DNA of 64,000 nucleotides from contig JAYWIR010000072.1 in the NCBI GenBank assembly GCA_036172245.1, positions 124,001-188,000 of the forward strand, in the 5' to 3' direction. This document shows, piece after piece, positions 6,821 to 64,000 of this stretch (the stretch's first letter is position 1; every line of letters starts with the position of its first letter). Both the position numbers and the translations under genes were made by a program. The notes beneath the pieces are model-generated. The model was not told where the DNA came from. It saw only the letters and a list, made by a program, of their open reading frames with translations, and did not search any database. The DNA is from Raillietiella orientalis (taxonomy: Eukaryota).

Positions 6821-8286
6821 TAAAGCTCTAAGAGGGTGGATGCACCTTTGTATGAGAAGAGTTGGCGATTGGCCCGTTCCGGGACGGCAAGTTTTACTTG
6901 CTTGAACGGGCCGCGGTATGGAACGCTTTTGCAACCCCCCTCCTTTGCCCCCAACTTTTTGTGTGCCCCACCCCCCCAGAAATTAGGAGACGGACAAGGG
7001 GTCTCATACGAAATGCCCTCTGGGGCAATCGGAGTCCCCGCGTTCGAATTAAAGACGTGTTCGCTCCACGCAGGGACGCTGGTTTTGGTCTCCTGACGTT
7101 GGAGCGCATGGAGCGACAGCTCCAATTTCGGAAACTTGCCCTTGTGGCAAAATATTGAACAGCACCCTAGTGTGCACCCACAAGACTCCTAGCTTACAGG
7201 GCGATTGACTGCACAACCTGGCTCTAAAAGCCCGTTTCCGCATGGGCGAAAATAAACGGCTCTAGCGACGAGGACTTCTCTTGCCTCCGTAGAGGCAGAT
7301 ACGCTGGTCAGCCACTGCAGGAGATCGTCCGCAACCGACGAAAACTTCTTTGGGCTTCGTCCACCCCTCTTGCCCTCGTGCTGCCTTCCCTAGGCTGGGA
7401 CAGCCAACAGGAGGCATCGTGGGAAGTGTCCTGCCTCATCAGAGGCAGGAAACAACCTTTGAAGGCGTGGACGTCAAGGGTACTAGCGGACGCTAGTGCC
7501 CCGAGTGTACCGCCGAACGGACTTTCAAGCTGGGGAGCGCTGCTCGACATATTTTTGGAGGGATGAAGTGGCCCCCAGCGTCTTGGGACAACGGCACCCT
7601 TCCCCTGCAGTGGCAGGAGACGGCGTTGCTTCTGCTCCATTGGGGACTTTTAAGCAGAGTACGCCTATCTCACTGGACATCGAGGAGTGTGGATGCCAAC
7701 TGCACAGAGTGCGGGGAACGGGAGACTTTCCCCCACCTGATTCTGTAGTGTGTCGCCCTCCGGGAGATGTGCGACCGACTCTCGTCGATCCTAAACATTG
7801 CGGTCGGCGACCCGAAGAACATATTTAGACGCCTCCTGATGCGGGACGCCTTGCCAGCCTCCGGGTGTGTAGCAGAGCTCTGTTCCATGCGCGGAGTCTT
7901 GGACAAGTGGACAGGAAAGGGAAAGGAGTGGAAAAAACAGTCGGAATGCCATTCACTGGGCAGCCATCTCTTTGTAGAAGGCCTGCCGTTGGCGCTGACT
8001 TCGGAAACATTTGCCGGCACTTGTTCGCATCCGAAACTGGATGCAGAGGCCTCCTCACGGCGTACCGTGATCACCTCTTTTTCCCCTCTTCTCCCAAAAA
8101 CATTGACCCCCTAGTAGTTTTTCTTTTTTTTGGTTTTGTTTTTGTTTTTCCCGCCGCTGCGCCAGTGTGGAGGACCTAATCAGCTTGCGGGCCGGTAAGG
8201 ACATGTGCCACAAGACAGTCGGATCATGTGTGCCGACTGAAACAGATGAACGCATGAAAAAATTATTCGACAAAAAGAAAAAAAGA
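6821..8286 (+). mobile_element. Tx1/L1-like LINE ORF2 3' part with 3' UTR and A-rich tail, inside the RLE element 3' UTR
   Basis: ALWGNRSPRVRIKDVFAPRRDAGFGL (post-RT thumb), CTECGERETFPHL C-terminal zinc knuckle, T-rich UTR, caaaaagaaaaaaag tail. Confidence 0.7.
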
Positions 8287-8390
8287 CTTTATTATGAAAT
8301 TTTTTTTTTTGTAATGTCAAAGTTTCAGTAACAAAAGCCCCGGCTCACCCGGGTGAAAAACCTTTGTATGAGAAACGTGGAATAATAAAA
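8287..8390 (+). mobile_element. 3' terminus of RLE element
   Basis: Ends agaaacgtggaataataaaa, matching the termini at ~1690, ~13475, ~13865 and (minus) ~62851. Confidence 0.7.
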
Positions 8391-8515
8391 GTCGCCGCCG
8401 CTGCGTTCGGACGTGTTTCCACGTCGCTGCGTGCGGTTAATTTGCAAAGTCGCTTTTTGTGCATAATTTGCATTTAAAAGTGTGATCTACCTTGCATATT
8501 TGCAAGAAGTGGTAC
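8391..8515. repeat. Non-rDNA repeat abutting element 3' end, copy 2
   Basis: gtcgccgccgctgcgttcggacgtgtttccacgtcgc...tttgcaagaa, homologous to 1691-1815. Confidence 0.7.
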
Positions 8516-13475: not shown

Positions 13476-13497
13476 CGTCGCCGCCGCCGCGTTCGGA

Positions 13498-13865
13498 CTG
13501 GTCGGTTGGTCAAGGTGGCCGCTATCTTAGTCGGGTAGCTGGGAAACTAGCACCCGAACAACGATGCGGTACTGAGCGGCCTGGGCCCGAGCAACCCAGA
13601 AATAAAGGCGATCCTCCCTTTAATCGTGTGCTCAGTGATCCGGGCGGCAAGGGATATCTACTTAGACCACACCACCAGCTGACCATCGGCGGACACCGAG
13701 CCGACTCTCTCGGCACCCTTGTCGTTTGCAGCTCATCCATCATGGTGCGGGGCTGCATTCAGAGACCCCATTGAACTATAACCGAGTGATCAATTAACTG
13801 CGAACTCCAAGTGCATCCAATCTCGTATGGCAACTATTTTAAAATAAGAAACGTGGAATAAATAA
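13498..13865 (+). mobile_element. Short 3' fragment of RLE element joined to antisense 28S
   Basis: Decayed VG-LG--HPNND...IVCSVIRAARDIY; terminus agaaacgtggaataaataa|agttactccc. Confidence 0.85.
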
Positions 13866-14260
13866 AGTTACTCCCACCGTTTACTCGCACTTGGTTGAAT
13901 CTCTTCACTTTGACATTCAGAGCAGTGAGCAGAAATCACATCGCGTCAACACCAGCAACGGCCATCGCGATGCTTTGTTTTAATTAGTCGGATTCCTCTT
14001 GCCCGTGCCAGTTCAGCGTCGATCGCTGCAAACCAGCCGAAACGCTCCGGGACCAAAGAGTCCGGTCGCGCGCAGGGCGACCACCGACCGGAACTTCAAG
14101 CGAGGCCGTTCCGGGGTTCGGAATCTCTAGCAAGAACGCCATGGGAGACCATCATCGCTACAGAAAAGGGCGCGCCATCAGAGTGCGCCGCGGGCCCAAG
14201 CGGAACCGCCGGCACGTACGCGCCCCGACCGAGCGGCGAAACGCCGATGTCCCGTTAGCC
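13866..14260 (-). rRNA. 28S rRNA fragment upstream of the insertion site
   Basis: Reverse complement of ...CTCTGAATGTCAAAGTG...GTAAACGGCGGGAGTAACT; corresponds to ~62410-62850. Confidence 0.92.
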
Positions 14261-44169: not shown

Positions 44170-45565
44170 TTGGGTCATAAATAGGGGAACAGACACTGGG
44201 GATGGGAGAGAGGGTTGCGGCTCAATGTTTGGGAGGCCGACGTTGTGAGGGGATATATGCTCAATGTAAATGTTCCGGGTCCATCGGATCGCCAAAAGGG
44301 TTGAAGTAGCAGCAATGTTCTTTATACTATGTTGGGGGAGACCTGCTAATCGAAACACTGCATCATTGGGGGGGTGCCAAGCACCTAGAGTGCCGACAAC
44401 GATAGCATCATTTAAAACTTTTAAGCCTTGAGACTCAAGGAACTTTTTAAGAGGGATGTATTTTTGTTTTCTTTGCCAAGCTGCTTTAAAGGAAGTAAGT
44501 CTGTTTTCATACGGGATGACTAGGTCCAGAAGGAGGGCATGGGTGGCATCTTGAAGAACGAGATCAGGGCGAAGAGTGGAGTGGGAATCTGGGATGCATT
44601 GGTTGCTGAAGGATATGGGCCATAGGAGAAGAAGAAATTCTTTTAATATTTCAGGAATAGCATTGTGTCGGGACGTGATCAATGTTCCTAAATGTGCGGG
44701 GCAATGGGAGAGCACGTGGGCTAACGTTTCTTTAGGGTATGGAGATTTTCTGCATTACTCGTTGAAGCCAGCTCTCTTACGATTGCCGTTCAAAACCAAT
44801 TGGTTGAGCTGGGTTCGGTGAATGAACCACCAATCGGCATATCGTAAGAAAGCATCTACTTCAAGAAAGCTCATTGATGCAGAGTGGCACTTAATACATT
44901 CCATGGAGCGACCTTGGTCCGGTTTGGAAAGCAGGGATTGGATTTTCTGGTCTCTGAGGAGAGACGGAATGGATTTGGCAATTTGCCTTCTAGAATTTGA
45001 AAATAAGACTTTGGAATTGTGAGAATCTACGCAAGCAAGGCGAATAACGATTTGATTCTCGACCAAGTCCCAAGAAACCGGTAAGCATTTCGCGAGTGAT
45101 CGACAACGAGACCAGAACGTTTTGGGGTCACCACTTGGTTCATCAAAGGGAGGGTTGTTAGAACCATTTAGGTAGTCTACAATTGTTTGGAGATCAGGGG
45201 AAGAGTGGCATTTTCTACTTACAGCATCGGACAATGTTTGGAATGCAAGTGAGGAAATGGAATCGTCAGGGCAACAAAGTAATTTAAAAGCGGAATCAAT
45301 TAGCATGATTCGGGATTCTTCCGAAAGAGCCATGATTCCGAGACAACCATCTTTGACACGACCGTATAACTATTCAACAGAGGAACCTTGTGTTAAGGGG
45401 AGTGTTTTGTTTCAAGGAATTACGGACAGTTTTTTCCAATTTGGACAACTCAGACAGCGGCTTGGTGCCCAAACGAAGATCATGAACTAGGGATGGAAGG
45501 AGGAACGTTTTAATGGCATCTAGTTTTCGGCAAGGGGCAAGGTACGAATTAGTCAATCCGTGAAA
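44170..45565 (-). mobile_element. RLE retrotransposon subfamily B, 3' part
   Basis: LAPCRKLDAIKTF, YADWWFIHRTQLN, RHNAI, LRPDLV, IPYENR, VGTLGAWHPPND. Confidence 0.9.
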
Positions 45566-47815
45566 TTTTATTGTATATACTCAATGTACCGATTGAACTG
45601 TACGAGCGTCTCCCCCGCTGTACAGTCTCAACTTTTTAACATGGTTACAACTGACCAGCGTAACGCTGATCTTTCTGTGAGTCACACGTCGTACGTCTGA
45701 GTATCTCGGCGTTTAACTGGGCAAGCACTTGCCTGTATTCCTACGTGGCCCAGATTTACAAAGAAAAAGGGTTTCCGATCCGGTGATCACAATCAGTTCC
45801 TAAGCTATCGCTTTTTGGGAGACATAGGGTCCTGGCTGTGCGATTTTCCCAGGCAGAATCTGCCTTTATTTCTCGCACGGTGCAGACTGGGAGTACATGG
45901 CACGAAGGGGATAGGTAACAAAGTTTTTTTGATCCTGGGTAGTTAATCGTTCTCAAGTCCGATGGTTCGGTTGTGGAGGAAAACAGCTGCCTCTACAGCT
46001 GGATCAGGTCTTGAAAGGCGGCGCGGCACCACGGGACGGTCGGTGTTACGCTGATCTTGTCCGTCTTGGATGAGACATGGTCGGCGTAGATATTCTTAGC
46101 TGCACGGATCACAGAGCACACGAGCTTTGGGCGAATCGCCTTTATTTCGTGGCTGCTCAGACCCATGCAGCTGAGGACCGAGTCGTTCTTGGGGTGCCAG
46201 CTGCCTAACGATCCAATCACAAAGGCTTCAATTTTGACGTTGTAGCCTTGTTTCTCGTATCTCCTGCGGATCTCAGCATATTTTGCGATCTTGAGTTTTC
46301 TCGCTGTATCCATCGTTTCTTTCCGGTTTTCGAAGGTGATGCATACATCCACAATGATCATGTGTTGTCCATGGGATGCGACGATATCAGGACGCAGGCT
46401 GCTATCAATGGATGAGTCTGTTCTATCGACCGAGAAGTGGCCCCATTTCGGTCGAGGAGAACGCTCTAGCATGGCTAAGACGACAATATGCCTGGCTGTG
46501 ATTGTTCCCAGATGCTTTGTGCAATGGCATAGCGCATGGGACAGTGTCTCCTTCGGGAACGGTCAGTGTCTGCAGGCCTCGTGGAAGCCCGGTCGCTTCC
46601 GGTTACCGTCAAGAAACATCTGGTTAAGACGGGCTCTATGGATAAACTTCCAATCGCTGTGGCGAATCAGCTCGGGCCTATCCAGAAAGGCCATGGAGGC
46701 TGGGTGGATGGCTACGCAATCCATAATGCGGCCCTGGTCCGGCTTGCTTCCCAGCACGTTGCTCCTTTGGAGCCTTTTTAGGCCCCGGATGGACCGGGCT
46801 ATTATTTTCCGGTCGTTCTCGCGGAGTGTCCTCTTGGATAGTTGAATGGAGACTTTGTTTGCTCGGATGGACCACTGCAAGTCAAGCCTCTTCGAGGCTT
46901 CGCGAGCTCTCGACCAGAAGTCGGCGGGGTCTCCCGACTGATGATGAAAAGGTGGGTCGGTGTCTCCGCTGATGTAACCGGATATCAAGGTAGCACCTTC
47001 CTCCGGACAGTTTAATTCAGAGAGACCCAGGCCATCTCTCTTATGGTCAGGTCGGGGCATGTCAGCATTTTGAACGCTGAATCGATGGCCATAATGTCGG
47101 CCTCCTCGGCGAGGATCATCAGCCCTAGACCACCATATCTCTTAGACCCGTAGAGATACTCTTTGGAAGAGGCTCGGGTCAGCAAGAGAATATCTTCCTT
47201 TAAGGCTTTCTTGATTATTTCATCCAGGCTGCTCCAGAAGCCTCTGGGCTTAGAGCCCATCCGCATGTGGTGGACGAAGGATGGAAAAATAAATGTTTTC
47301 AAGGCGTCCAGCGTTTGCCACGGAGCTAGTGGTGCCTCCAGAATTTTAATTACGCTGGATCGGATGTCGGCTTCAAGCGCATCGCTGTGGATGGCATCGA
47401 ACCCGACCGGCTTCCCCAGGTAGCCGTAAGTGCCAACATCTGTGAGGGCGGGCAAGAGCTCACCCGCCACTCGGAATCGCTGGCGTCCAACGGTTCTTGG
47501 GGTACCCGGGTGGTATTGGAACGATGCACACTTCCTGGCGTTAATCGACATTCAAAGTCGAGAGGCCGTGCTTTTGAAGTTCCGCCGCATCTTTTGTCAG
47601 GACGACTAGGTCATCCGTATAAGCCAATAAATTGTCCTTGGGCACCTGGCTCTTGATGCACACACAGAGGCTCCAGTGTGATATTAAACAAGCCCGATAG
47701 AGGGCAACCTTGCTTGACCCCCCTTTCGAGGGGAATGTGCGCTGATAGCCCCTCTTCGGTAACGATCCGGGTGGTGTTCCCGGAATACATTTGGCAGACA
47801 AGCTCTTCATCAAGC
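45566..47815 (-). mobile_element. RLE retrotransposon subfamily C, 3' half with 3' UTR ending aataaaa
   Basis: RGVKQGCPLSG, LAYTDD, LAPWQTLDALKTF, DWKFIHRARLN, LRPDIV, IGSLGSWHPKND. Confidence 0.9.
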
Positions 47816-49189: not shown

Positions 49190-49452
49190 GTATCCCGTTA
49201 TCAGGTGCGCCCGCCGCACACCATCTTTGGCCAACCAATCTTACCGCAGGGCTCCGAAGAACGCAGTGCGTTCTCCGCGCCTGTGGCTGCTGCAGGGCGC
49301 GTATACGTTCGCGACCACGAGGTCGATCGAGTCGGACCACTTGAGAACAAGTTGCCCAACTCGAGCTTCCTCGTCGAACAGTACACTGCGCACTGCCTTT
49401 GCGACAGCTGGCTTCAGCAGGAAGGCCACTTCGCGGGAGTGGTCTCCACCGG
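49190..49452 (-). mobile_element. Tx1/L1-like APE endonuclease fragment
   Basis: AFLLK...ARVGQLVLKWSDSIDLVVANVYAP...ERTAFF. Confidence 0.7.
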
Positions 49453-50877
49453 ATTATGCTCCAGAACGCCGTCATATGGAAGGAAGCCCTTCTGGTGTGG
49501 ACCAAGAATCCTATTTGCCGAAATCCAGTCGCGAAGTCTTCTGGCTAGGCATTTTGCAAATATCTTGCCAATAGTCCGGCTAATGGCTATCGGCCGAAAG
49601 TGCGCGAGGTCTTCCCTCCGTAGCGCAAAGCTCTCGAGTATCAGGGTCGTCCTCGACTCTTTCCATTCGTGGGAGATTCGGCGGGGTAACAGGCAGATGT
49701 TGAATATCGCCCTTAGGAACCGACACTCTGGGTCGAGTTTCTGAAAGGCGGAGTACGGGATGCCATCTGACCCGGGCGCCGTGTCTTCACATTGGCGGAG
49801 ACAATTGGCAATTTCCCGGGCGTCGAGGGAAAACATGTCCACTTGGGCTTCCGTTGATTCCTCCACGGGGTCGAACGCCACAGGGCGAAAGTCGGGACGG
49901 GCCTTAAACAATTCCTTGAAGTATAGCTCGATACGCTCAGGGGATGCCTGGCATTGCACTTAGTCGCTATCCAAAACGTGCCTGATCGCCCTTCGGCGAT
50001 TCCTGCCGTACATCCTCTGCAGCGACCTAGCGTACATACTTGGTTGCCGGTGTTCTTGGGTTGGGGGGGTGAAGGGGCGTAGTTTGAGAACGTATCTAAT
50101 CGCCTCATAGGCAGCGTTCAGTTCCTTCATCGCTAACCCCCAAGACTCCATGGAGATTTTTCGTGATTCCAGGTCTTCGAGGATTCACGTTGCTTCTTCA
50201 AGCGTGCTGGTAGGATTTCCCATCTTTTCCTTCTCAGCTCCTCGATACGACGCTCCCGAGCACCCGTCAGCTAACGCGTTCGGGAGCCCATATCCACGCG
50301 AGATTTCTCGCTCTCTATTATGGAGGGCGTCATAGCGCGAGTTGAGTGCGGAGGGAGGGCTCCTTCCCGGCGGGTCGCCCTCATCTTCTGTCTTAGATCG
50401 AAGTGGCCATCGCTGTGATGGCGACGTAATGGAGCCGTACGCCGCACGCTCGCGTGGGCGGGAATTGTCGTCGGCGCTACTTCCTTCCCAGAGACCTTGT
50501 TGGCGCCCCTTCTAACTTCAGCCCTGGTTCTTTGGTATGGTGCCCTAACGCATACGCTAGCTAGCGCGCGCGAGGGCCCACTTCCGCGGGAATTCTCTCG
50601 TTCACCATTACAACGGGCATCAAAGTGCGAGCTGAAGAAGGGAGGGCTCCCTTCCGGCGAACTGTCTTCGCGTGTTATCTTGTCTTAGGTCGGAGGGGCC
50701 ATCGCTACGGTGGCGACGTAGTGGGGCCGTGCGCCACGCGCTCGCGGGAGCTGGGCATGTAGCCGACAGTTTATTCTTTCCACGCGGTTGGTTGGCGTTC
50801 CTTCTGACTTCATCCTCAGCTTCTCGGTGTGGTGCCCTCGCGCATACGCTGGTTAACGCGCGTGAGGGCACATTTTC
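49453..50877 (-). mobile_element. RLE retrotransposon subfamily C, N-terminal and early RT part
   Basis: LQRMYGRNRRRAIR, DTAPGSDGIPY, FRPIAI, GPHQKGFLPYDGVLEHN. Confidence 0.88.
50270..50877. repeat. Two and a partial third tandem copies of a ~290-bp coding unit
   Basis: gcta(a/g)cgcg...ggagggctcc...tcttag...ggccatcgct...tggtgccct..cgcatacgct repeats at ~50270, ~50560, ~50850. Confidence 0.8.
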
Positions 50878-51281
50878 GCGTCCGGAAGGCTCCGTTCGGC
50901 CCTTGAAAATCTGAGTGAGGTAGAACGAATCTCGTGCCAGATCGTACCCATATCCGCAGCAGGTCTCCAAGGTGAACAGCCTCTGGCATGTTAGAACAAT
51001 GTAGGTAAGGGAAGTCGGCAAGCCGGATCCGTAACTTCGGGATAAGGATTGGCTCTGAGGGTCGGGCCGGTCGGGCTTGGCCGGGAAACGGTAGTGGTTT
51101 CCTCGCTCGGTCGGGGCGCGCGCGTGCCGGCGGGTCCGCTCGGGGTACGCTCAGCGGCTGCCTGCGGCGCTCGCCGGTCGCGCTCCGGTCGGCCGTCGCC
51201 CGCCGCCGCGCGCCGTTTTCTCGGCGCGCGGCCGGGCGCTCTGGTCCCGGAGCGTTTCGGGCGGCATGCAGCGATCGACTC
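50878..51281 (+). rRNA. 28S rRNA fragment
   Basis: CGTACCCATATCCGCAGCAGGTCTCCAAGGTGAACAGCCTCT...GTAAGGGAAGTCGGCAAGCCGGATCCGTAACTTCGGGATAAGGATTGGCTCT; paralogous to ~62175-62696. Confidence 0.95.
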
Positions 51282-54200
51282 GCGGGCGTGAGTAGTATCT
51301 CGGAGAACGAGATCGGGGCGAAGGGAGGAGTGAGAGTCTGGGATGTACTGGTTGGTGGAGGAAATTGGCCATAAGGGAAGGAGGGATTCTTTTAGCTTAT
51401 CCAGAATGGCATTGTGACGAAGGGTGATTAGTGTCCCTAAATCAGCGGGACAATGGGAAAGGACATGTGCCAAAGTTTCATTGGGGTAGGGACATTTCCT
51501 ACATTGCTCGTTGAAACCAGCTCTCTTACGGTTGCCATTTAAAACTAATTGGTTAAGTCTGGCTCGATGAATGAACCTCCAATCAGCAAACCGTAAGAAA
51601 GCGTCCTCTTCAAGGAAGCTCAATGATGCAGAGTGACATCTGATACATTCAATAGAGCGATCTTGATCGGGTTTCGACAGCAACGATTTAATCTTCTGGT
51701 CTCTGAGAACAGACCGAATAGACTTCGCAATTTGCCTTCTAGCGTTAGAATACAACACTTTGGTATCATCTGAGTCAACACAAGTGAGGCGAAGCACAAT
51801 TTGACTTTCCACGAGGTCCCAGAGGATAGGTAAAGAATTTGCAAGGGAACGACAACGAGACCAGAACGTTTTTGGTTATCCACTCGGCTTGTCAAAGGGA
51901 GGATTGGTGGATCCATTGAGGTAGTCAACAATGAGTTGTAGATCAGGGGGACAATGGCATTTCCTCCGGACTGCATCGGATAAGGTTTGAAAAGCAAGTG
52001 AAGAAATAGCATCATCGGGGCAAGAAATTATTTTAAAAGCAGAGTCAATGAGCATAATTCGGGCTTTTTCCGAAAGAGCCATGACTCCGAGACAACCATC
52101 TCTAATACGCCCATAAAGATATTCGACGGAGGAGCCTTGGGTAAGGGGAAGAATGTTTTGTTTAAGGGAATTGCGTATAATTTTTTCTAATTTGGACCAT
52201 TCGGAGAGTGGCTTGGTACCTAAGCGAAGATCATGGATTAAAGAAGGGAGGAAGAACCTCTTGATTGCATCTAGCTTTTGCCAAGGGGCAAGATATGAAT
52301 TGGCTAGTGCGTGAAATTTATCAATGAACACAGAGAGATCTCCATTATAGAATAGAGGGTCAAACCCAATGGGTTTCTCTAAATATTTGTAAGTCTGGTG
52401 GGATTCAAGGGGAGGAACGACTTCATTAAGAACAAAAATGGGGGAGGGAAGAACTTGAGGGGGAGAAGCAATGTAGTGGAATGAGCCACATTTTCTCGGG
52501 TTAAGAGATAGGCTCCACTGAAGGCATTGATTAGAAAACACCGTCACTGCATCCTGTAGAACATCGAAATTCTCTGATGTAAAGGCAACATCATCAGCGT
52601 ATGCCAAGGGTAGAATTTCAGGGAAAGTACGTACTATTAATTGGATAAGGGGTTCCAGAGCAATATTGAATATTAAGCCACTAAGAGGGCATCCTTGCTG
52701 AACACCAGCTAGAATGGGAATTGGTTCTGACAGCCCGGTCGCTGTGCACATTTTGGTGTACGATTCCGCGTACATGTTCTTCATAATGGAGATGAAGTCT
52801 TCTCCTACACCAAAGTAACGGAGAGCACAAAAGATAAGAGCGTGGGGGACGGAAGAAAAAGCATCTTTTAAATCAAGCCAGCCGATACATAGATTTTTGT
52901 GGTGGACTCTAGCACGCTCTAGAAGTGAAGCTAATAAGAAGTTTTGTTCTAGCACCTCGTCATAAGTTAAGAAACCTTTCTGGTGAGGGCCTAAAATGGA
53001 ATTTTCTAAAATCCATGATCTAAGTCGGCGAGCTAAAATTTTGGAGTACAGTTTGCTCAAGGTACAGCTGATGGCAATGGGACGAAATTGGGAGACATCA
53101 TCGAAGGAGGAGGTACCAAGTTTAGGGATTAGCACAGTTCGGGAAATTTTCCAATTGGAGGGAATCCGTTTGTGTTGCAGGCAAGCGGAAAACAGGGCGG
53201 CCAAACATTTATATGAAGGATCGGATCTTTTCAGGACAGAGTATGGGATTCCATCTTCACCAGGGGTTGTATCATGGGAAAATTTTAAGGCAAAGGCAAC
53301 TTCTTCAGCAGTTATGGGGGAAAGATTAAATGGAGTATGGGATAACATAGGAGGGAGTGACTCAAATATCGAGAGGTTGCAAGGCTTGAGGGAAAATTTC
53401 TCTAGAAAATGTTGAGAAGCCGTCTCAACAGGACCAGAAAAGGAAACAGGGTTGGGTTGAAGAATGGCTCGCACTGCTAATTTTTTATTCCGTCGATACA
53501 TCTTCTGTAGAGTTTTTACGTTTGGAGTAGTTCGAGAGTGGCTTTGCGGTTTGAACAAATAGGGACGAATTTTGAATTTAGCTTGAATGGCGGAAACAGC
53601 TTCAGACAAGGTGTCCAGAGTTATTTGCCAAGAATCATCGGATACTGGGACGGTGTGGGACCATTGAAAAATTGGAGTGAAGGGTTCTAGAACGTATTGA
53701 GGGGAGGGACGAGTTAAGGATCTATGATGAGGAATGCTGTCAAAAGAGGACGGAACGTTCAAAGCGCCTGATGAATGAGATGAATTAGGCTTAGGAGGCA
53801 CAGGTACGGGGATAATTTGAGGCAAGGGAGGAGGAGGAACAGTCGGCACAGGGACAGATAAAACGGAGTCATCAGTGTACAGAACAGAAAAGCGGTTGGA
53901 AGTTGGGACAGGTGTGGGAGCCGAGCGATTTGAGGCACTTCTTAGCTTAGCTTTACCTAGAATTCGTTTATGCCACCGAAGGTGGTTTTGAAGGCCTTTT
54001 AATGAAGCAAACGATGATGAACAATTTTCATGGGAGCATTGGAATCGAGAAGGGGTGGGGTTAACTAGAGGAGGGGATGGCTTTCTATCATTTTTAAAGC
54101 AGGCATGGTGTTGAGTAGGTAAACTAATGATAGAGTCGCATTTTCGGCAAATGAGGTCATGTGAATAGAAGGGGAGTTTATGGTGACTTTTAAGATGTCT

Positions 54201-54337
54201 CTTTAGGGAATTCAGAGTTCTTTTAGGGTCCTCCGTTTTAGTAAACCAACTACAAGAGGGAATGATGCAAGCTAATGCCCTGTTTACCGGGAATTTGACA
54301 TGTAGATGATTATCCTGGGTGAGAATAATATCTGCAT
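51282..54337 (-). mobile_element. RLE retrotransposon subfamily B, long, truncated within the RLE domain
   Basis: Zinc fingers, complete RT, zinc knuckle, LRPDLV then 28S; one frameshift near 51876. Confidence 0.93.
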
Positions 54338-54371
54338 TTTCGAGCACGGGACCAAAAGTCTGCCGGGTCAC
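51876..54371 (-). CDS. Zinc-finger plus reverse transcriptase ORF, 831 aa (first ~12 codons come from the adjacent element)
   Basis: FQCSHENCSSSFASLKGLQNHLRWH, WLDLKDAF, GVQQGCPLSG, LAYADD with no internal stop. Confidence 0.9.
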   Translation of the reverse strand: MTRQTFGPVLENADIILTQDNHLHVKFPVNRALACIIPSCSWFTKTEDPKRTLNSLKRHLKSHHKLPFYSHDLICRKCDSIISLPTQHHACFKNDRKPSPPLVNPTPSRFQCSHENCSSSFASLKGLQNHLRWHKRILGKAKLRSASNRSAPTPVPTSNRFSVLYTDDSVLSVPVPTVPPPPLPQIIPVPVPPKPNSSHSSGALNVPSSFDSIPHHRSLTRPSPQYVLEPFTPIFQWSHTVPVSDDSWQITLDTLSEAVSAIQAKFKIRPYLFKPQSHSRTTPNVKTLQKMYRRNKKLAVRAILQPNPVSFSGPVETASQHFLEKFSLKPCNLSIFESLPPMLSHTPFNLSPITAEEVAFALKFSHDTTPGEDGIPYSVLKRSDPSYKCLAALFSACLQHKRIPSNWKISRTVLIPKLGTSSFDDVSQFRPIAISCTLSKLYSKILARRLRSWILENSILGPHQKGFLTYDEVLEQNFLLASLLERARVHHKNLCIGWLDLKDAFSSVPHALIFCALRYFGVGEDFISIMKNMYAESYTKMCTATGLSEPIPILAGVQQGCPLSGLIFNIALEPLIQLIVRTFPEILPLAYADDVAFTSENFDVLQDAVTVFSNQCLQWSLSLNPRKCGSFHYIASPPQVLPSPIFVLNEVVPPLESHQTYKYLEKPIGFDPLFYNGDLSVFIDKFHALANSYLAPWQKLDAIKRFFLPSLIHDLRLGTKPLSEWSKLEKIIRNSLKQNILPLTQGSSVEYLYGRIRDGCLGVMALSEKARIMLIDSAFKIISCPDDAISSLAFQTLSDAVRRKCHCPPDLQLIVDYLNGSTNPPFDKPSG

Positions 54372-57300
54372 CGGATGGGAGATCTAAAGGGGGAACCGTC
54401 TCCCCACTGAGATATTTTGCAATTAGCTCCGCTGAAGGGTTTTGTCGTGTCTTGCGGCGCACGGTCTCCCTCAGGGAGGACCAGGCCAGCTCACGGATCA
54501 TGGGGTCCGGGCACGAAAGGATGTTGAATGCCGAGTCGGTGGCCATGATTTCGGCCTCTTCGGCAAGTATCATGATCCCAAGGCAGCTCTTACTGACCGG
54601 ACCATATAGGTATTCGGTCGAGGATGCCTGGGTCAGGGGGAGGATTTCCTCCTTTAACGCCTTGCGAATGATTTGGTCGAGCGATTGCCAGAAGGTTTTC
54701 GGCTTCGACCCCATTCGGAGTGCGTGCACGAAGGCTGGGAAAACAAAAGTCTTCAATGCGTCGAGCTGCTGCCACGGCGCGAGTGGACAGTCCAGTACCT
54801 TCGCAACGCTGCCAGTAATGTCCGCTTCAAGCGCATGGCTGTGCATGGCGTCGAAGCCTACGGGCTTTCCAAGATAACTGTGCCTATGTCGTTCAGCACA
54901 GGGATGGGTTCCCCTGTTATGCTGAATTTCCCTCGCCAAAGGGTCTTGGGAGTTCGGGGATCGTAGTGCAGGGAGGAGCACTTCTTGGCATTGATGGTGA
55001 GGCCCAGGCGTGTCGCCATGGAGCCTGCCGCATTCAACGCCGCTTGCAATGTTTGTACGTCCTCAGTTAGGATGAGCAGATCATCCGCATAAGCCAGCAC
55101 CTTGGTTCCCGGGACATGCTGTTTGATTCCTTGGCACAACGGCTCAATCGCAATATCAAACAGCAGTCCGGATAGCGGGCAGCCCTGCTTTACGCCCCTA
55201 CATATATGTATTGGAGGCGAGAGACCGGCAGATGCAACGATCTGCGTGATGTTGTCCGTATACATCTCGCACACGAGTTCGACGAATCGGTCACCGGCTC
55301 CCGCACACTGAAAGGATCACAGGAGCTGTGAATGTGGAATGGAGGCAAATGCGTCTTTTAGGTCTATCCAGGCAGCACAGACGGTTCGATGGTGGCGCTT
55401 GCTATAATCGAGCAAGTGGGCTAGCATGAAGTTATGTTCGAGAACACCATCGAACGGGAGGAAGCCCTTCTGGTGCGGGCCGAGAATGTTATTTTGTATG
55501 ATCCAGTCCCTCACTCGGCGAGCCATGCACTTGGTAAATATTTTACCTAACGTGAGGCTTATGACAATCGGGCGAAACTGAGAAATGTCTTCAGTGTCCT
55601 GATTATTTGCCTTGGGAATGAGTGTAGTCCTGGACTCTTTCCACTCGGCCAGTATGCGCCGATGGTGAAGGCAGAGGTTGAACATGGCACACAAGAATTT
55701 GCAGTCTGGGTCCACTCTGCGGAACGCAGAGTATGGAATCCCATCAGCGCCTGGCGCTGTGTCCTCGCACTGCCTGAGGCAGTTGGCAACCTCGGCTTCC
55801 GTAAAGGGGGAGAGGTCCACTTCCTCATGCTGGGGACTTAAGTTTGCATTCCATGATAGGGGGCGAAAGCCTGGAATTGCACCGAAGAGGGCGGTATAGT
55901 GTTGAATTATTTGATCGGGATCAGCAGTGCACACAGTGGAAGTACCGTCCATGATTTGGCGGATGGCTCGCCTCCTGTTCCTGCCATACAGGCGCTGGAT
56001 GTATTGCGGTGTTATTACACTTTGTCTGCGTTCGGGCCTCGGCACCGTAAAGGGGCGGAGCCGTAGCTGGTGCTGAATCGTTTGGTATGTAAACGATAGC
56101 ACCCTGATCGCATGACCCCAGTGGTCCACCGATGGGGCTCTGTGCAAGAGGTTGTCCAGCGTTTGGGTAGCTCCCTGAAGTGGTGGGCGCAAGTCAGGTC
56201 GCCTGGACACTTGTTGCCGTCGCACTGTTTGGGGGTGGGTTGTTTTTGGAGGTGAATGGCCGGTCCTCATGCCGGGTGAGTCCCTTCCCTCCTGCTCACT
56301 TTCATCCTCGAGCAGTGCAAATCGGGAGCCCGTCGCTCGTGGTGCCAATGCGGTATTCCGTCTCGGTGCCAGACGAGTGGGCTCCCGAGTGGCAGCGCCG
56401 CGTGGTCGAGTACTGACGTTAGAGGCGAGTCTCCTTGGTTGACGTCGACGGTGTTGGACTGTGCACCACCCTTGATCTTGAGGCGGGTCAGGGGGGGGTG
56501 CATCTGGCACCAATGTCGCAACCTCTGGGGATTCCCTAGTGTTTTGTTCGATTGCAGGCGTGCTCCGAGATGGGATCTGTCTGTGCTCTGTAGCAGACAC
56601 TGTACTGCTTGTGCCCCTGCCGACACCAGGGTCCCGTTGACGCTCATGTTCCCGGACGATCGCGTTGTGCCAGCGTACATGGTTCGCCAGTGCCTTTCTA
56701 TTGAAGAAGGTCTGGGCACAGTTTTGCTGTTGGCAGCGGAGAGGAGCCGGGGGTGTGATCGGGGCGAGCCTCGGCCCACAGCGGTGATGCCATACAGGTA
56801 TGGCCAAGCGCTGGTTACAGCGGCGACAGAGGAGGTGGGTGCCACGTACCGGTATCCGATGCGCGGTTTGTATGTGTCGTCTAAGCGACCCCAGCAACCG
56901 CTTGGGTTCCATCCCGGAGGTGGCCCATCTGCATCGCGGTAACGGGCATTCCATGTTCCTGGTCGTTGGATGGAAAACGATGAGAACGTCCTCCATCGTC
57001 AGAATGGGAGCCGTGTTGCTTTGGCTGTCCATCGGTGGAGGCTCAAAACTCACCCTGGGAGCCAGGAGAGCTATTTCTGGAACCGTATCGGCGCGTGTCG
57101 GGCTCTCGTGCGAGCGTAATCTGGCATTCGTCCCACGTGGGCATTGCTGATTATTACGTGGTCGCACGTGTGTTCTCGGACGAGCCGAACATTCTGACCG
57201 CACTCTGTTCATGCCTGATGGGCCTGGTGGCTCATTAGCTGGATTATTGCTGCTCTTTGCGTGGTTTGGCGCATTCTGCCGTAAGCGTTGAAACCGAGGG

Positions 57301-58847
57301 ATGATCGGTCTTGCGGTCTTCGCTTCGATTCGACCGCCCGTATGTACGCAGGGTGTACGGGAGGCGGCGCAGGAGGGAGGCGCGGGAACAAGACACAGGT
57401 TGTCGCCCTCGGTGACAGGTCTTGGATAAGTTCAAGACCAGTTTGTGAGGGGGAGGCAACAGTCAACGTGGAGTGTCCGGACTGTAGCGATTCCTGTTGC
57501 GGGACCATGCTCTCAGAGGAGGTAACACATTGAGGAGGGCGTGCGAAGTAATTGATTTCGGCGCTTGACAGCCTCGTTACCATGACTCTGTGCTGGTATG
57601 CCCGGTCGAGGTCCATCCTGCCTTGTGGATGCACCGATGACGGTGGCTCCAATAGAGGAGGGGGCAACTGGATTGAGTGCTCTGCCACAGTGAGCTCTGT
57701 TGGCACTACAGTGTCCAGGAGTGATGTTGGAGAGTCGGGCGTGCCGATGACTTTGGGGGTTGACCTGGAGGCCGGGCCGGGGGTGTGTAGGCTCCTCTGC
57801 TTGGGAGTACTGCTGCTGCTCGGTCCGGGATGGTTAAACCAGTTCATCTTTAGCCGGGATAGGTCTCTTGAACTCCACGACGAATCGGTTGAATCATCCT
57901 TGTCCCAAGAGTCTGGGAGCCCAATTGTAGTGCCGCAGTCCTCTCGTGCCTCGTTCGCAGCACCCTGTACTCTGTCCATGTTCAAGTGTTTCCACTTGTA
58001 ATGGGCTCTCCTGTGGCCGGGCCTGCCGAAGGATGCATTGCATAACGGGCACTTATATTTCAGTGTTAAAAGCATTTCTGGTAGTGGCACAGGGGGATTG
58101 AGGCATCGGTGCTGCGCTAGCGGTTGCTGCGTGCTCTCATTCTTGTGACATACTACACAGAAAAATCTGACGGCCGAAACATGAGTGCCGTGTATTCGAT
58201 TGAGGTGGGTCTTGAGGTTTCTAACTCGGTTCTTAACATCATTTGCCATGGTGGCAAACCAGCAGTCTGGATGTGGGCATGGCACCGGGAGGTCTGTGCC
58301 ATGGGAAATCCAAAGTTCACGCCCGGTAGAGAGGGTGCAGTGAGACGATGGCATACTTAAAAGATGGCGCCTGACGCTTCGCGTGATCACGTGGGAAGAA
58401 GTCGCAGAGCCAATAGGAGAGCGAGTTCTCCGAGCGGACCAATGGGAGCGCTCGGAAGGGACGCTAAGTTTTCCCGCGCTAAGCGAGGTTACAAAGGATG
58501 TTGAAGATCGATGTGGTCGATCTCTTGGATCAACCACCGTGGTTCAATTCCGCACAAAATCAGTCAAAGAGGACGTGTTGAGGGCCCGGGTGATCGGTTC
58601 GAACTGTCAAACCCTCTTACCTTCCCGGCAAGTGTGCTCTCTGGTCTAGGCCATGGCAGCACGAAGGCGGGAGATGAGAATGTGCACAGCACCCACAAAA
58701 ATTACCACACAGGCACAAAAGTTGGTAAAAAGGTTCACTGTGGGCAGGAGATGCACAGAACGAAAATTCATGAAGGGTCATCCCTGAAAGTTTTTCACAA
58801 TCAAGAGTCAAACTTCATGCCGCGTCGGAGCTCCGCTCAGACACGTC
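54338..58847 (-). mobile_element. RLE retrotransposon subfamily A with intact 5' end, 3'-truncated after the thumb
   Basis: ORFs 57209-58537, 55317-57212, 54858-55274 and 54310-54981 form one frameshifted ZF-RT polyprotein. Confidence 0.93.
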
Positions 58848-59033
58848 CGTCGTGTAAGGAGTGACGCGCATGAATGGATTAAGGAGATTCCCACTGTCCC
58901 TACCTACTATCTAGCGAGACCACAGCCAAGGGAACGGGCTTGGAAAAATCAGCGGGTAAAGAAGACCCTGTTGAGCTTGACTCTAATCTGGCATTGTGAA
59001 GAGACATGAGAGGTGTAGCAGAAGTGGGAGGCG
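58848..59033 (+). rRNA. 28S rRNA fragment downstream of the insertion site
   Basis: GTGACGCGCATGAATGGATTAA...CCACAGCCAAGGGAACGGGCTTGG...GACCCTGTTGAGCTTGACTCTA. Confidence 0.95.
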
Positions 59034-59034
59034 T

Positions 59035-61692
59035 TCCCGCTGGCAATCTCGGTTCGCGGCCGCGGTCCGCTCCCTTGCTCCTGCGGCGCGCCGCTACGTG
59101 TATCGCCTTTCCTCCTCTCTGCCTAACGAGTAATGCCATCGGGCGTGATTCGCGACAGCCTTGCTATTGAAGAAGTGTGTATCGCAGTTCGGTTCTGGGC
59201 AGGGAAGTGGCGCCGGTTCCTCAAATCGCATCGCCCGGGGTCTCCAATTTCCAGGATTCAGATTAACATTGAGAAGTGTTCGACACTTTATTAGGGGGAG
59301 ATGCTTTGGACTCTGTGTTGTTTCCATGGTAACCAGTGTCGGAATTATATATTGAATCTTTTCCATCGCACTGATACATCATGTGTTCCAAATTTCCACT
59401 TTTTGTGTTTTGTAATCAATTGAAAATCAGCAGACTTCAATATTGCACTGTTGCGACTCTTCCTGACGCTTCCATTTGCAGTGAGTGGCAAATTCCCTTC
59501 ATGGAAAGCCGCACAGCATTCCAATTTCCAGGATTCAAATTGACATTGAAAAGTGTTCGACACTTTATTAGGACGGGGTACTTTGGACTCTGTGTTGTTT
59601 CCATGGTAACCACTTTCGGAATTAAATGTTGAATGTTTTCCATCGCAGTGATTCATCATGTGTTCCACACGGGGATCGGCACATTCACGTTGCATCGTCC
59701 ACACACGAGGTGGGAGCTACGTACCGGGATCCAGTGAGCCCCTCTCAGGTGTCCGCGTAGCGATCCTAGAGTAGACTTGGCCTGTTGGGTACTAGTCTGC
59801 CACCTGCAGCGTGGTAATGGGCTAGGCATGTTGGTGCTCGTCGGCAAGCATACCAGGAGAACATCATCCTCAGTCAAGGCCGATGTCACTGCAGTTGCCG
59901 ATTGCTCTATTGTTGACGAGGGAGTAGTGGTTCTCTGGGGGTATACAGACACCGGCGATTCGATCAGCTTCCGAGCGTTTGTGGTCGAAGTTCCACATGT
60001 TTGTGAAGGGCGCATTGCAGGCGCTTGAGTTGGAACACGAGTGGTCGGTCGCCGGTCAGTGCTTCCATCTTCAATCGACCGTCACAAGCCTGAGTCAGCC
60101 GCATCTGTCGCTGCAGACGGGGGATAACCGGGCTTTGTTGGCGGCGTCTCGGTTTTTTCCGTTCGACTGCACGCACATATGCCGGGTGTACAGGCGGGGC
60201 AGGTGGAGAAGAGTGTGGAATCTGCAGTGCAGATTCCACACTCTTCCACGACCTCTTTTGTCGGGGAGACTTGTTCAAGCAACTCGGCTCCAGTTTGAGA
60301 GGGAGATGCAAGGGTGAGTGTAGAGTGACCGGAGAGCCGCGATTCCGGTATCGGAGTTACCATTCTGGGGTCCATATTGCACTGTGGAATGCGGGTGAAG
60401 TATTCATGTTCGGCCTGCGACAGCCTGGTCACCAGTACCCTTGGTTGGAACGCATGCTCGAGGTCCTTTGGGTTCGGGACTGAGACAGGCTGTCCGAGTG
60501 AGGGAGATGGCAGGCGGACGGGTTGTTCTTCCACCGTCGAATTCGACGGTACTTCGGTGTCTAGGATGGAAGATGCAGGGTTCGTTGTCCGGTAGGCTTG
60601 AGTATTCACATTGTTGCTCCTAGGTGTGGTGTGGTTCCCATTCCGACGTGGGGTGCTGTGGTCACCTGGTATGATCTGATTAAACCAATTGTTGTGCAAC
60701 TGTGAAAGGTCTGCTGAGCTGCAAGATGAGTCGGGGAAGTCTGCATCGTACCAGAAGTTGGAATATTCGTTGCCCTCCCCACAGTCCTCAAGGGCTTCAT
60801 TAGAGGCACCGAGAGCACGATCCATATTCAAGTGCTTCCATTTGTGGTGCGCCTTTCGGAGCGAATTGCGTCCGAATGATGCACTGCATTTTGGGCACTT
60901 GTGTTTTAGCGTTAACAACATTTCTGAGATAGCCACAGGGGGATTGTGGCACCGATGCTGAGTAAGCATCTGGTTGCTGTTCTCGTTTTTGTGGCATTTC
61001 ACACATCAAAAGCGAACGCCAGGAATGTGCACTCCGTGAATGCGATTCATGTGTGCTTTCTAGTTCCGCACACGGTTCTTACTGTCTGTCGCCGTAGTGG
61101 CGGATACACAGTCAGGGATCGCACAGGGCACTGGAATGTCCATTCCATGTGAAATCCATAATTCCCGCTCCACGGAGAGCATGCAATACGACGGCGGCAT
61201 CAGTTCAAGATGGCGCGCGACGCTTCACGCTGTCACGTGGGAGGGAGCGAGAGACCCAATGAGCGAGCGGGTTCGCCGAGTCGACCAATGAGATCGCTTG
61301 GTGGGGACGCTAGTTTTTACCGCGCATACCGATGGAAGAAAGGAAGTTCAGGAACCGAGGTGGTCGATCCCTGTGGTCGACCACCGTGGTTCCAAGTTTC
61401 GGAATGGGAATAAGGGCGACGTAGTAAGGACCCGAGCGGTCAGTTCCGTTGATCAATCCCTCTTACCTTCCAGACAAGTGTGCTCTCTGGTCTGAGCCAT
61501 GGCAGCACACAGGCGGGAGACGAATTTGTCCACTGCGACCACAAAATTTTCCACACTTGCACAAAAGTTGGTGGAAAGGTTCACTGTGGGTTGCGGGTTC
61601 GTGAGACGAAGAATCACGGGGCGTCACCCCTGAAAATCTGCACTAGCAGCAGTTGCACACTGATGTGCGCGGGAGCTCCGGCTAGACACGTC
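59035..61692 (-). mobile_element. RLE retrotransposon subfamily A, 5' part only
   Basis: HKCPKCSASFGRNSLRKAHHKWKH, LTEDDVLLVCLP..PLPRC, conserved 5' end. Confidence 0.88.
59244..59667. repeat. Insertion of two ~146-bp direct repeats around a ~130-bp spacer
   Basis: ccaatttccaggattca...catcatgtgttcca at 59244-59389 and 59521-59667. Confidence 0.88.
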
Positions 61693-62714
61693 CGTCATCT
61701 AAGCAGTGCCGCGCATGAATGGATTAACGAGATTCCCACTGTGGGATGAACCAAACGTTGGGTTACGGCGCCCGACGCGACGCTCATCAGATCCCATGAA
61801 AGTTGTTGGTTGCTATGGACAGCAGGACGGTGGCCATGGAAGTCGGAATTTGCTAAGGAGTGTGTAACGACTCACCTGCCGAAGGAACTAGCCCTGAAAA
61901 TGGATGGCGCTCAAGCGTCGAGCCTATACCGAACCGCCGGGACAGAGCCGTTCCTGCCTTCCGGGCCGTTCCGCAGCGGCAGCAGCAGGAGCGTCGGTTC
62001 GCGTCGCGGCCGGAAGGGAATCCGCTTCTCGCTGCAAAGCAAACGAGCTCGGAGACGTCGAACTCGGTACCCCGGGAAGAGTTTTCTTTTCTGCATAAGG
62101 GATTGCCTCGTACCCTGGAATCGACTCGTACGGAGAGAGAGTCGGGCTCCCGAAGGGCGCCGTGGTTCTTGCGGCGTCCGGAAGGCTCCCTTCGCCCCTT
62201 GAAAATCCGAGTGAGGTAGAACGAATCTCGTGCCAGATCGTACCCATATCCGCAGCTGGTCTCCAAGGTGAACAGCCTCTAGACGATAGAATAATGTAGG
62301 TAAGGGAAGTCGGCAAACCAGATCCGTAACTTCGGGAGAAGGATTGGCTCTGAGGGTCGAGCCGGTCGGGCATGGCCGGGAAACGGTAGTGGTTTCCTCG
62401 CCGTGGCCGGGGGCTAACGAAAGATCGGCGTTTCCTCGCTCGGTCGGGGCGCGCGCGTGCCCGCGAGTCCGATCTGTGTACGCTCAGCGGCTGCCTGCGA
62501 CGCTCGCCGGTCGCGCGCGGTCTTTCGTAGCGATACCCGTCTCCCATCCCGGCCTTGCGCGGGATTCCGACCAGCGGAACGGCCTCAGTTGACGCTCCTG
62601 TCGGCCGTCGCCCGCCGCCGCGCGCCGTTTTCTTTTCGGCGCGCGGCCGGGCGCTCTGGTCCCGGAGCGTTTCGGCCGGCATGCAGCGATCGACTCAGAA
62701 CTGGCACGGACAAA

Positions 62715-62746
<32 letters not shown>

Positions 62747-62774
62747 CGCGATGGCCGTTGCCGGTGTTGACGCG

Positions 62775-62806
<32 letters not shown>

Positions 62807-62850
62807 AGTGGAGAGATTCAACCAAGCTCGAGTAAACGGCGGGAGTAACT
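61693..62850 (+). rRNA. Permuted 28S rRNA fragment: ~50 nt downstream of the target fused to ~1.1 kb upstream of it
   Basis: cgtcatctaa...gattcccactgt|gggatgaaccaaacg...GGACGGTGGCCATGGAAGTCGG...GTAAACGGCGGGAGTAACT. Confidence 0.95.
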
Positions 62851-64000
62851 TTTATTGGCCCACGCTTTTTACAGAAATGTTTGCCCTAGGAGGGTGAATG
62901 AACTGTATCTATGGAGGGTCTGGTTTTACACACACACTGTTTTCACACTAAATTTAAAGATCTTTGAGGTCAGGGAAAGCCGCACAACACCAGGACGAGT
63001 CCACCGCTGGTGATAAGGGGGCTCGAGTCGTCGATCCGGTGTCCGTCGACGGTCTGCTGGTGGTATGGTCAAAATAGATGTCCCGATCTGCCCGGATCAC
63101 CGAGCACACGATCTCAGGGCGAAGCGCCTTTATTTCTGTGTTGCTCAGGCCCAGGCAGCTGAGGACTGCATCGTTGTTAGGGTGCCAGCTTCCTAGCGAC
63201 CCTACAACGAGTGCATCCACCTTGACCATCCTTCCCTGCGCCTCGTAGTCTCTCTGCAGCACACGGTATTTGGCTATCTTGTTGGCTCGGGCAGTCTCCA
63301 GTGACGCTTGTCTGTTCTCGAAGGGGACAGTCACGTCGACAAGGATGATGCGTCGACCATCAGATGCCACGATATCCGGGCGTAGGGAGCTGTTGATGGC
63401 GGGGTCGGAGCGGTCGATCGGCAGCTCAGGCCATTTGGGTCTGATTACTGGTTCAAGGGTGTTCAGGACCGCATTGTTCAGGACCGCCCGAGGATTCGTG
63501 TTCCCAGGTGTCTGGTGCATTGACACAGCACGTGGGCTAATGTTTCTTTCGGGTAGGGGCAGTTTCGGCATGCCTCTTGGAAGCAAGGGCGCTTGCGGTT
63601 CCCATTAAGAAACAACGGATTTAAGCGTGCCCGGTGTAGGAATCGCCAGTCACAGAACCTTATCAATCGACTGTTGTCGAGAAAAGACATGGACGCAGGG
63701 TGCAGCGCCACGCAGTCGATGATTCGGCCTTGATCTGGTTTGTTTCGCAGGCGTTCAAGTCTCTCCAACCTACGGATGCCCCGTATAGATCTCGCCACGA
63801 TCTTACGGTCAGCCTCACGTAGTGTCTTCCCGGAAACCTCTATCGAGGCTTGGCAGTCGGATATACGCCAGCAAAGCGCTAGGCGCTTAGATGCTTCCCG
63901 GGCACGGGACCAAAAGTCTGCGGGGTCGCCAGATGGGAGGTCTAGAAGGGGTGTCAATTCCCCGTTGAGGTACCTGGCGATTAGTTCCGAGGTGGGACTC
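62851..64000 (-). mobile_element. RLE retrotransposon subfamily A, 3' end joined antisense to 28S
   Basis: DWRFLHRARLN, CRNCPYPKETLAHVLCQC, LRPDIV, VVGSLGSWHPNND; terminus (rc) aaaaagcgtgggccaataaa|agttactccc. Confidence 0.93.

Follow-up and report, generated by a model that had tools for sequence, protein, structure and literature searches.

A family of R2-supergroup retrotransposons inserted antisense in 28S sequences of Raillietiella orientalis

Retrotransposons specific to ribosomal DNA (rDNA) are a model for target-primed reverse transcription (TPRT) and are under development as tools for inserting genes at safe sites. One of these elements is R2, whose site within the 28S gene we take to be TTAA^GGTAGC. 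Here we describe a family of retrotransposons without long terminal repeats (non-LTR retrotransposons) in a stretch of 64,000 nucleotides from Raillietiella orientalis (GenBank assembly GCA_036172245.1, contig JAYWIR010000072.1, positions 124,001 to 188,000 of the forward strand), the whole of which we call the window. The family probably homes to a single position in 28S, ...GGGAGTAACT^ATGACT..., at which it makes site-specific insertions antisense to the ribosomal RNA (rRNA).

Insertion of this kind has planarian precedents. For LIN9_SM, LIN24_SM and LIN26_SM of Schmidtea mediterranea (R5/LIN lineage, NeSL clade), Kojima and Jurka (2015; PMC4640811) show the 28S flank as the reverse complement in their S6 Fig; the passages of their main text on these elements name 28S as the target only. 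As the flank is reverse-complement 28S, these elements lie antisense to the rRNA, and antisense insertion into 28S is therefore not new in itself. R5 of Girardia tigrina is described as 28S-specific and is classed in the NeSL clade, and NeSL elements are described, in the relevant section of one account, as making target deletions (PMC3636483). Utopia, also of the NeSL clade, combines between one and three zinc fingers at the N terminus with a reverse transcriptase (RT), one further zinc finger and a restriction-like endonuclease (RLE), with no Myb domain in the published outline of its architecture (PMC4640811); it is listed for spiders, ticks, Daphnia and a centipede. Hassan et al. (2026) assign an element to Utopia and not to R2 when it has no Myb, and a survey of 2025, as summarized in a 2026 review, inventoried many NeSL and Utopia elements, mostly from arthropods.

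The family in the window resembles R2, its nearest well-studied counterpart, in having just one open reading frame (ORF) with N-terminal zinc fingers, RT, a CCHC motif and RLE, in targeting the same conserved stretch of 28S, 13 nt away, and in its 5'-truncated copies, its several lineages per genome and the accumulation of inserted units in decayed rDNA. It is unlike R2 in that insertion is not at TTAA^GG in sense, the junctions lying 13 nt upstream and antisense, and in that the full-length copies are accompanied by a 28-nt target deletion. With this orientation the first nick would fall on the rRNA-sense strand, whereas the first nick of R2 is placed on the antisense strand in the description available (PMC5035012). 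Like LIN9_SM, LIN24_SM and LIN26_SM, the family is RLE-type, 28S-specific and antisense, and LIN24_SM and LIN26_SM are placed by the published figure in the same conserved domain. The 3' junction drawn for LIN24_SM and LIN26_SM is, however, at ...|ACGTTGTGTCAAAGCC, approximately 70 nt upstream in 28S sense, and that drawn for LIN9_SM is in another region of 28S. In a comparison by junction and description only, the three planarian elements also have T-rich tails, whereas the present family ends in ...AATAAA, and their host is a flatworm.

Junctions with 28S

Two element 3' ends in the window touch DNA that is not part of another element, and both do so at the same 28S base (2 of 2). At 62850/62851, + strand 28S (62821-62850) ends in ...ACGGCGGGAGTAACT; the next letters, TTTATTGGCCC..., are the element end ...GGCCAATAAA in reverse complement. 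At 13865/13866, the + strand element end ...GGAATAAATAA is followed by AGTTACTCCCACCG, which is - strand 28S from the same nucleotide, that of ...GGGAGTAACT^ATGACT.... Both 3' flanks match the LSU_rRNA_eukarya model of Rfam at positions ~2016-2265, ending in ...GGGAGUAACU, and, counting ATGACTCTCTTAA, the junction site lies 13 nt upstream of TTAA^GGTAGC. The other half of the site is seen at 2432-2635, where reverse-complement 28S (...GGCTACCTTTAGACAGTCA) gives way to element sequence; at 2636 stands the element's first base or else a mutated base of 28S. The initial annotation had named these three junctions (62850/62851, 13865/13866 and 2636), and on re-reading they are present as it described them, as are the antisense orientation, the distance of 13 nt from the assumed R2 site and the 5' truncation of the copy at 2636, which amounts to ~1.1 kb. 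Its suggestion of novelty was overstated, as antisense insertion into 28S had already been shown for LIN9_SM, LIN24_SM and LIN26_SM, at other positions.

The remaining contacts with 28S agree with these junctions. A fuzzy search of the window found the upstream half-site in exactly two places, the two 3' junctions (up to 6 mismatches), and the downstream half-site in one (up to 8 mismatches). Of the element 5' ends, four border DNA from outside the elements, in every case 28S from beyond the site on its downstream side, collinear and antisense: that of c2 (copies are listed below) rejoins 28S at +1/+2, and those of c3a, c8 and c9 rejoin it at CGTCATCTAA, 28 nt past the 3' junction site. Rejoining at +28 reads as a deletion of 28 nt of the target, ATGACT...GCCT, and a target-site deletion is a feature shared with NeSL elements as described in part of the literature, although the three +28 junctions are possibly not independent. 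Every element is antisense to whatever 28S adjoins it, and two units, 8500-14260 and 50878-59032, keep both halves of 28S around their elements. If positions were random, the same base in the same orientation would be hit twice in a gene of ~4 kb by chance in about 1 case in 10^4.

The element 3' end itself is conserved as ...AAACGTGGnnAATAAA. (A/C)GT follows all five recognizable 3' ends regardless of the sequence beyond. It follows that the last one to three bases (ACT in 28S sense) may be part of the element itself, and the nick is placed only within 3 nt. The 3' end has no long poly(A) tail, and AATAAA stands at its very end. Read-through at the 3' end is thus conceivable, and it might be argued that there is no site specificity and that antisense 28S was carried along by transduction from one source copy. 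We consider this very improbable: transduction of a 3' flank does not account for the matching downstream half of 28S, collinear at 4 of 4 5' ends, nor for the units that keep both halves, and the 28S flank of c10 runs for 1,108 nt and ends in another piece of 28S rather than in a new target.

Copies in the window and independence of the insertions

Copies were located by tblastn with c7B, by self-comparison and by a search for 28S pieces, followed by re-reading of the joints. This yielded ten partial copies in the window, together with two short end fragments, none of them intact; c7B is the best kept, and c2 and c3a have no ORF of more than 293 codons. Pairwise protein identity between copies is 38 to 79%. 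In a FastTree phylogeny of 61 rows, nine window copies form one clade (local support, 100), which splits into lineage B (c7B and c4B) and lineage A (seven copies in at least three subgroups), with 38 to 48% amino acid identity between A and B. The features are as follows.

1..1689, + strand: c1, lineage A, 3' portion, interrupted where the window begins; 3' end at 1689, then the 5' end of another copy (1690 to ~1760)
2432..2635, - strand: 28S downstream of the site (+1/+2 to ~+205), adjoining the 5' side of c2
2636..6870 (3' limit approximate), + strand: c2, lineage A, 5'-truncated by ~1.1 kb, broken; 3' end degraded, flank not recognizable
8330..8500, + strand: short 3'-end fragment (to 8389), then, head to tail, ~110 nt of an element 5' end (from 8390)
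8500-8528: degenerate stub of downstream 28S, ~25 nt, abutting the c3a 5' end at CGTCATCTAA
8529..13475, + strand: c3a, lineage A, near full length, broken
13476..13499, + strand: linker (C)GTCGCCGCCGCCGCGTTCGGAC(T), the same sequence as after two other 3' ends, read as the element 5' terminus
13500..13865, + strand: c3b, an internally deleted copy, the last 366 nt of the element preceded by 22 nt of 5' terminus
13866..14260, - strand: 28S upstream of the site, decayed (4-nt deletion, several substitutions)
44200..45585, - strand: c4B, lineage B, 5'-truncated, intact-looking CCHC and RLE; head to tail after c5, its 3' side entering a CRESS Rep-like ORF
45600..47793, - strand: c5, lineage A, 3' half
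49279..50217, - strand: c6, lineage A, fragment (residues 227-550)
50878..51281, + strand: 28S upstream of the site, the final 154 nt before the site deleted
51282..54383, - strand: c7B, lineage B, AT-richer, 1,029 codons with a single TAA; 3' end lost with the 28S deletion
54340..58847, - strand: c8, lineage A, complete 5' end, two three-zinc-finger modules, in four ORF pieces; truncated at about residue 845, where c7B begins
58848..59032, + strand: 28S downstream of the site, from +28 (CGTCGTGTAAGGAGTGACGCGC...)
59650..61692, - strand: c9, lineage A, 5' part only
61693..61742, + strand: 28S from +28 to +77, joined directly to 28S at ~-1108
61743..62850, + strand: 28S upstream of the site (~-1108 to 0), ending in GGGAGTAACT; Rfam large-subunit rRNA match up to model position ~2265
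62851..64000, - strand: c10, lineage A, 3' untranslated region, RLE and CCHC region, running off the window; ORFs 62957-63604 and 63481-63999 with one frame break

The window is best read as a piece of a collapsed, decayed and non-homogenized rDNA array with insertions in at least five of its units. The joint at 61742/61743, where 28S at +77 meets 28S at -1108, is exactly what would result if a deletion had fused two inserted rDNA units that followed one another. Two further scraps are debris of inserted rDNA units: a stray 34 nt at 43297-43330 (+), which share 94% identity with the 28S expansion segment at 62103-62136, as well as an RT fragment standing by itself at 14590-14909 (+), covering residues 595-727.

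It is improbable, in our judgment, that one ancestral insertion was followed by segmental or tandem duplication of the whole block, 28S together with the element, such that the identical junctions represent a single event and are uninformative about site specificity. The region is highly rearranged and repetitive, three full-length copies have the same +28 5' junction, and a 756-nt match between 13504-14260 and 63231-62412 spans the junction, all of which would suit duplication. However, a duplicated block should show equal divergence throughout, whereas the 28S flanks of c3b and c10 are identical at 93/100 and 145/156 positions (93%) and the element ends adjoining those flanks at 63/82, 124/165 and 281/365 positions (75 to 77%), with many gaps. 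Set against the Rfam consensus, the changes that distinguish the two flanks are private and not shared, one flank having a 4-nt deletion and CUGCUCACUGC and the other ACAAAAGG and GGAGAG; the changes common to both look like the species' own 28S. Duplication also fails to explain why two lineages with 38 to 48% protein identity both lie antisense at or beside the site, and why c2 has a different 5' junction. Similar figures were obtained for c7B, of lineage B, and c10 (28S flanks 82 to 96% identical, proteins 48%) and for c2 and c8 (downstream 28S flanks 83% identical, proteins 52%). Flanks that are far more alike than the elements inside them fit separate insertions into a homogenized gene family and not the duplication of one insertion. 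The two 3' junctions are thus most likely independent events, as the initial annotation had supposed.

Several points weigh against the conclusion that the family is site specific. The informative 3' junctions are two only, both in one 64-kb window in which every copy is dead, and three of the five recognizable 3' ends (those of c1, of the fragment at 8389 and of c3a) do not touch 28S. Past gene conversion with active rDNA, rather than separate insertions, may account in part for the greater similarity of the flanks. The +28 junction common to c3a, c8 and c9 could descend from one event, and the 28S stubs of these copies (~25, 185 and 50 nt, respectively) are too short or too decayed for their independence to be judged. 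For the tree, c7B served as the anchor to which the window rows were aligned, which may favor their grouping, and FastTree support is optimistic. A search for the junction word in metagenome contigs gave three matches, none of them in 28S; two fall in a bacterial-looking gene and the third in a short repeat, and all are due to chance. Finally, the nicking, priming, promoter and template jumping proposed below are all inferred.

The encoded protein and its relatives

The element is an R2-supergroup (RLE-type) non-LTR retrotransposon, as shown by its RT, CCHC motif and RLE, and its motifs together with the junctions bear out the earlier description of a site-specific non-LTR retrotransposon with an RLE. 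Among the 138 ORFs of at least 100 codons in the window, Pfam identifies RVT_1 in c7B (E = 3e-29) and also in c2, c3a and c8. The c7B RT matches R2 structures at E = 8e-42 (turtle and finch) and E = 5e-28 (silkmoth). The ORFs behind the junctions carry a CCHC motif and RPD...D...K..KY (among the copies, CRKCPYPNETLAHVLSHC and RPDLV...LLLDL...K..KY), and this region aligns to the RLE of solved vertebrate R2 structures at E = 3e-8. Two other classes of element were considered and rejected: a long interspersed nuclear element (LINE) of the apurinic endonuclease type is ruled out, as Pfam found no such endonuclease domain (Exo_endo_phos) in any of the 138 ORFs, and canonical R2 or R1 is ruled out by the wrong site and strand.

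Upstream of the RT are three zinc-binding motifs (CCHH, CCHC and CCHH), which are conserved with relatives. In lineage A, this three-zinc-finger module is found twice in tandem in copy c8, at 57212-58543 (-) and 56655-57017 (-), residues 77-154 of the upstream ORF being 30% identical to the second module. The doubled module forms a long N-terminal extension that resembles that of relatives of 1,500 to 2,500 residues. The best explanation of the pieces is a full-length copy of ~5.9 kb with one long ORF, encoding one or two three-zinc-finger modules, RT, CCHC and a PD-(D/E)XK RLE.

In contrast to R2, no Myb domain was found after the zinc finger(s). No Pfam family of this kind was detected in the window ORFs or in 14 relatives, although a very divergent Myb is possible. 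An AlphaFold model of residues 1-340 (mean predicted local distance difference test score, 71) consists of zinc-finger modules followed by disorder, with no Myb apparent. Foldseek with this model returned nothing at E <= 0.001 and only weak matches to zinc-finger arrays (best E = 0.09), and an ESM Atlas search with the N terminus gave no usable match. Peptidase families were likewise absent, by Pfam, from the window ORFs and the 14 relatives, a difference from NeSL-1, the nematode spliced-leader element, which the family also does not resemble in its 28S target. Nor does the window contain a ribozyme, an R2 RNA element or a U2 gene, large-subunit rRNA being its sole Rfam match at E <= 0.1. The family thus differs from R2 in having no 5' hepatitis delta virus-like ribozyme by Rfam, and its antisense orientation would exclude cotranscription with 28S.

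When 1.84 billion representative sequences were searched with HMMER, 941 proteins scored E <= 1e-30; the top match reached E = 3e-149 with 35% identity. Source names were obtained for 7 of the 20 top matches looked up, six of them with an organism, among these Orchesella dallaii, Pollicipes pollicipes, Cherax quadricarinatus and Araneus ventricosus (twice). Word-indexed protein searches gave 13 and 7 matches at 24 to 44% identity, the second adding Araneus, Nephila pilipes and, distantly, a bee. The closest named relatives are thus arthropod proteins; where their names contain "R2", this is automatic annotation throughout. In the tree, which was built without named clade references, the window clade adjoins a clade of 30 rows that includes springtail and spider proteins. 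Pfam found neither a Myb nor a protease domain in the relatives examined. By sequence comparison, the family is much closer to this unnamed arthropod clade (E = 3e-149) than to canonical R2.

Likened by described architecture, the family resembles Utopia as published: zinc fingers only, RT, CCHC and RLE, with no Myb. It is unlike Utopia in its target, which is 28S and not U2, and all of its identifiable flanks are 28S or another copy. The NeSL/R5 grouping given in the initial annotation is a candidate placement. It is rather doubtful, though worth keeping in mind, that the family has already been catalogued with this site, with the same biology, as an arthropod Utopia- or NeSL-type entry in Repbase or in Fell et al. 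(2025), or as a relative of R5, in which case nothing about it would be novel. The listing of Utopia with matching architecture for spiders, ticks, Daphnia and a centipede would favor this, as would the 941 library proteins at E <= 1e-30 and the R5/LIN lineage, which is described as having diversified 28S targets and includes the antisense LIN9_SM, LIN24_SM and LIN26_SM. However, by the published figure LIN24_SM and LIN26_SM insert ~70 nt further upstream and LIN9_SM in a different region, and there is no U2 gene in the window. Moreover, a search of a limited literature collection found no text describing an antisense, 28S-specific RLE element at this position, nor one describing antisense 28S insertion by RLE elements.

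Head-to-tail joints, proposed integration and neighboring sequences

Two observations go beyond the initial annotation: the full-length copies are associated with the 28-nt target deletion, and three of the five 3' ends abut another element copy. The 3' ends of c1, of the 8389 fragment and of c3a are each followed by one shared sequence, (A)GTCGCCGCCGC..GCGTTCG, and this leads into the GACGTGT... with which the full-length copies begin. In our reading, the shared sequence is the genuine 5' terminus of the element's RNA (AGTCGCCGCC.../GACGTGT...), and the joints are head-to-tail pairs. Further head-to-tail pairs are c5-c4B and c8-c7B, in each of which lineage A is followed by lineage B.

The ~20-nt stretch AGTCGCCGCCGC..GCGTTCG (13476-13499, 1690-1710 and 8390-8410) has a faint likeness to 28S around the site. 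We considered whether this linker is decayed 28S; by eye, it agrees with ~13 of 24 positions of the upstream flank and ~9 of 17 of the downstream flank, which is too weak. The three linkers are 77 to 88% alike, far more than any of them resembles 28S, and for this reason they are read as the element's own 5' terminus. Some sea squirt R2 elements have been reported with 5' ends that resemble 28S.

The RT of R2 performs end-to-end template jumping in vitro. The head-to-tail pairs may have arisen in this way, the RT jumping, at the 5' end of one RNA, onto the 3' end of a second one, or a 28S half-site retained at an existing 3' junction may have been cut again. We think the latter less probable, although it deserves to be taken seriously. 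In c3a-c3b, c5-c4B and c8-c7B, the first member has the second on its 3' side, toward the upstream half of 28S, as a later element re-cutting the half-site of a resident copy would produce; that half is preserved in two of the three pairs, c4B running into the Rep-like ORF instead, and two pairs mix lineages, A then B. Yet at three joints a 3' end meets one and the same 5' terminus precisely, and no bases of the target intervene, as end-to-end template jumping gives, and, if recognition is R2-like, a resident copy would have displaced the DNA beyond the nick.

By analogy with R2, integration of the family would begin with a nick by the RLE in the rRNA-sense strand at, or no more than 3 nt from, T^A. 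The freed 3' OH of ...GTAACT would then prime reverse transcription from the conserved RNA 3' end, ...AAACGTGGnnAATAAA. The second strand may be cut opposite the first nick, as for c2, or the cDNA may rejoin 28 nt further on at CGTCATCTAA, with loss of 28 nt of target, as for the three full-length copies. Because an antisense element would not be cotranscribed with rRNA by RNA polymerase I, as R2 is, it would need its own promoter. In the window, at least five inserted units would have been hit separately by at least two lineages of the element and would later have decayed, most of the rDNA being lost by deletion. We consider it possible, with something less than an even chance, that an old zinc-finger/RLE lineage whose closest named relatives are all arthropod evolved a 28S specificity of its own, with a nick that falls 13 nt upstream of the R2 site in the rRNA-sense strand, backwards insertion, its own promoter, at least two deep lineages competing for one nucleotide and head-to-tail arrays formed by template jumping or re-cutting.

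If this is true, the 28S hotspot has been colonized repeatedly and in both orientations, the family offers a natural comparison for the reading of DNA by N termini composed of zinc fingers only, and the question arises of how antisense rDNA elements are transcribed. If intact copies exist elsewhere in the genome, they would encode an enzyme that naturally carries out TPRT at a second position, not yet described, within the universally conserved safe-harbor region of 28S, on the opposite strand to R2. The value of this window is limited, as all of its copies are dead and there are planarian precedents for antisense, 28S-specific elements of NeSL type; interest in it as a source of a gene-insertion enzyme, which the initial annotation had mentioned, was overstated, every copy being broken. 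Seven sequencing runs share sampled words with the window (best DNA run, 0.22; RNA runs, 0.04 to 0.10), a result that is uninformative on expression or habitat.

Other sequences in the window deserve mention. ORFs with a circovirus/CRESS-type Rep domain (Pfam Viral_Rep) lie at 43415-44221 (-) and 40815-41153 (-), with E = 9e-15 and 9e-11, respectively, and the DNA of the two is ~69% alike (40749-41265 against 43635-44146). The first of these continues directly from the 3' side of c4B and could be an endogenous viral fragment captured beside, or through, the element. The element-rich, rDNA-derived arms of the window are mirror oriented (1-14300 on the + strand, 44000-64000 on the - strand), and a large inverted duplication, 15630-19778 against 39698-33337, with 77 to 86% identity in several blocks, brackets an AT-richer middle. 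A short ORF at 26353-26730 (+) matches the bacterial-type NMT1_3 (E = 1e-8) and, weakly, DDE_Tnp_1_3, which is odd for a eukaryotic rDNA and transposon region; it may be a transferred or contaminant fragment. Lastly, unrelated RT fragments at 27995-28423 (-) and 30926-32095 (-) (RVT_1, E = 3e-11; 25% identity to P0016) indicate that other LINE families have also accumulated in the window.

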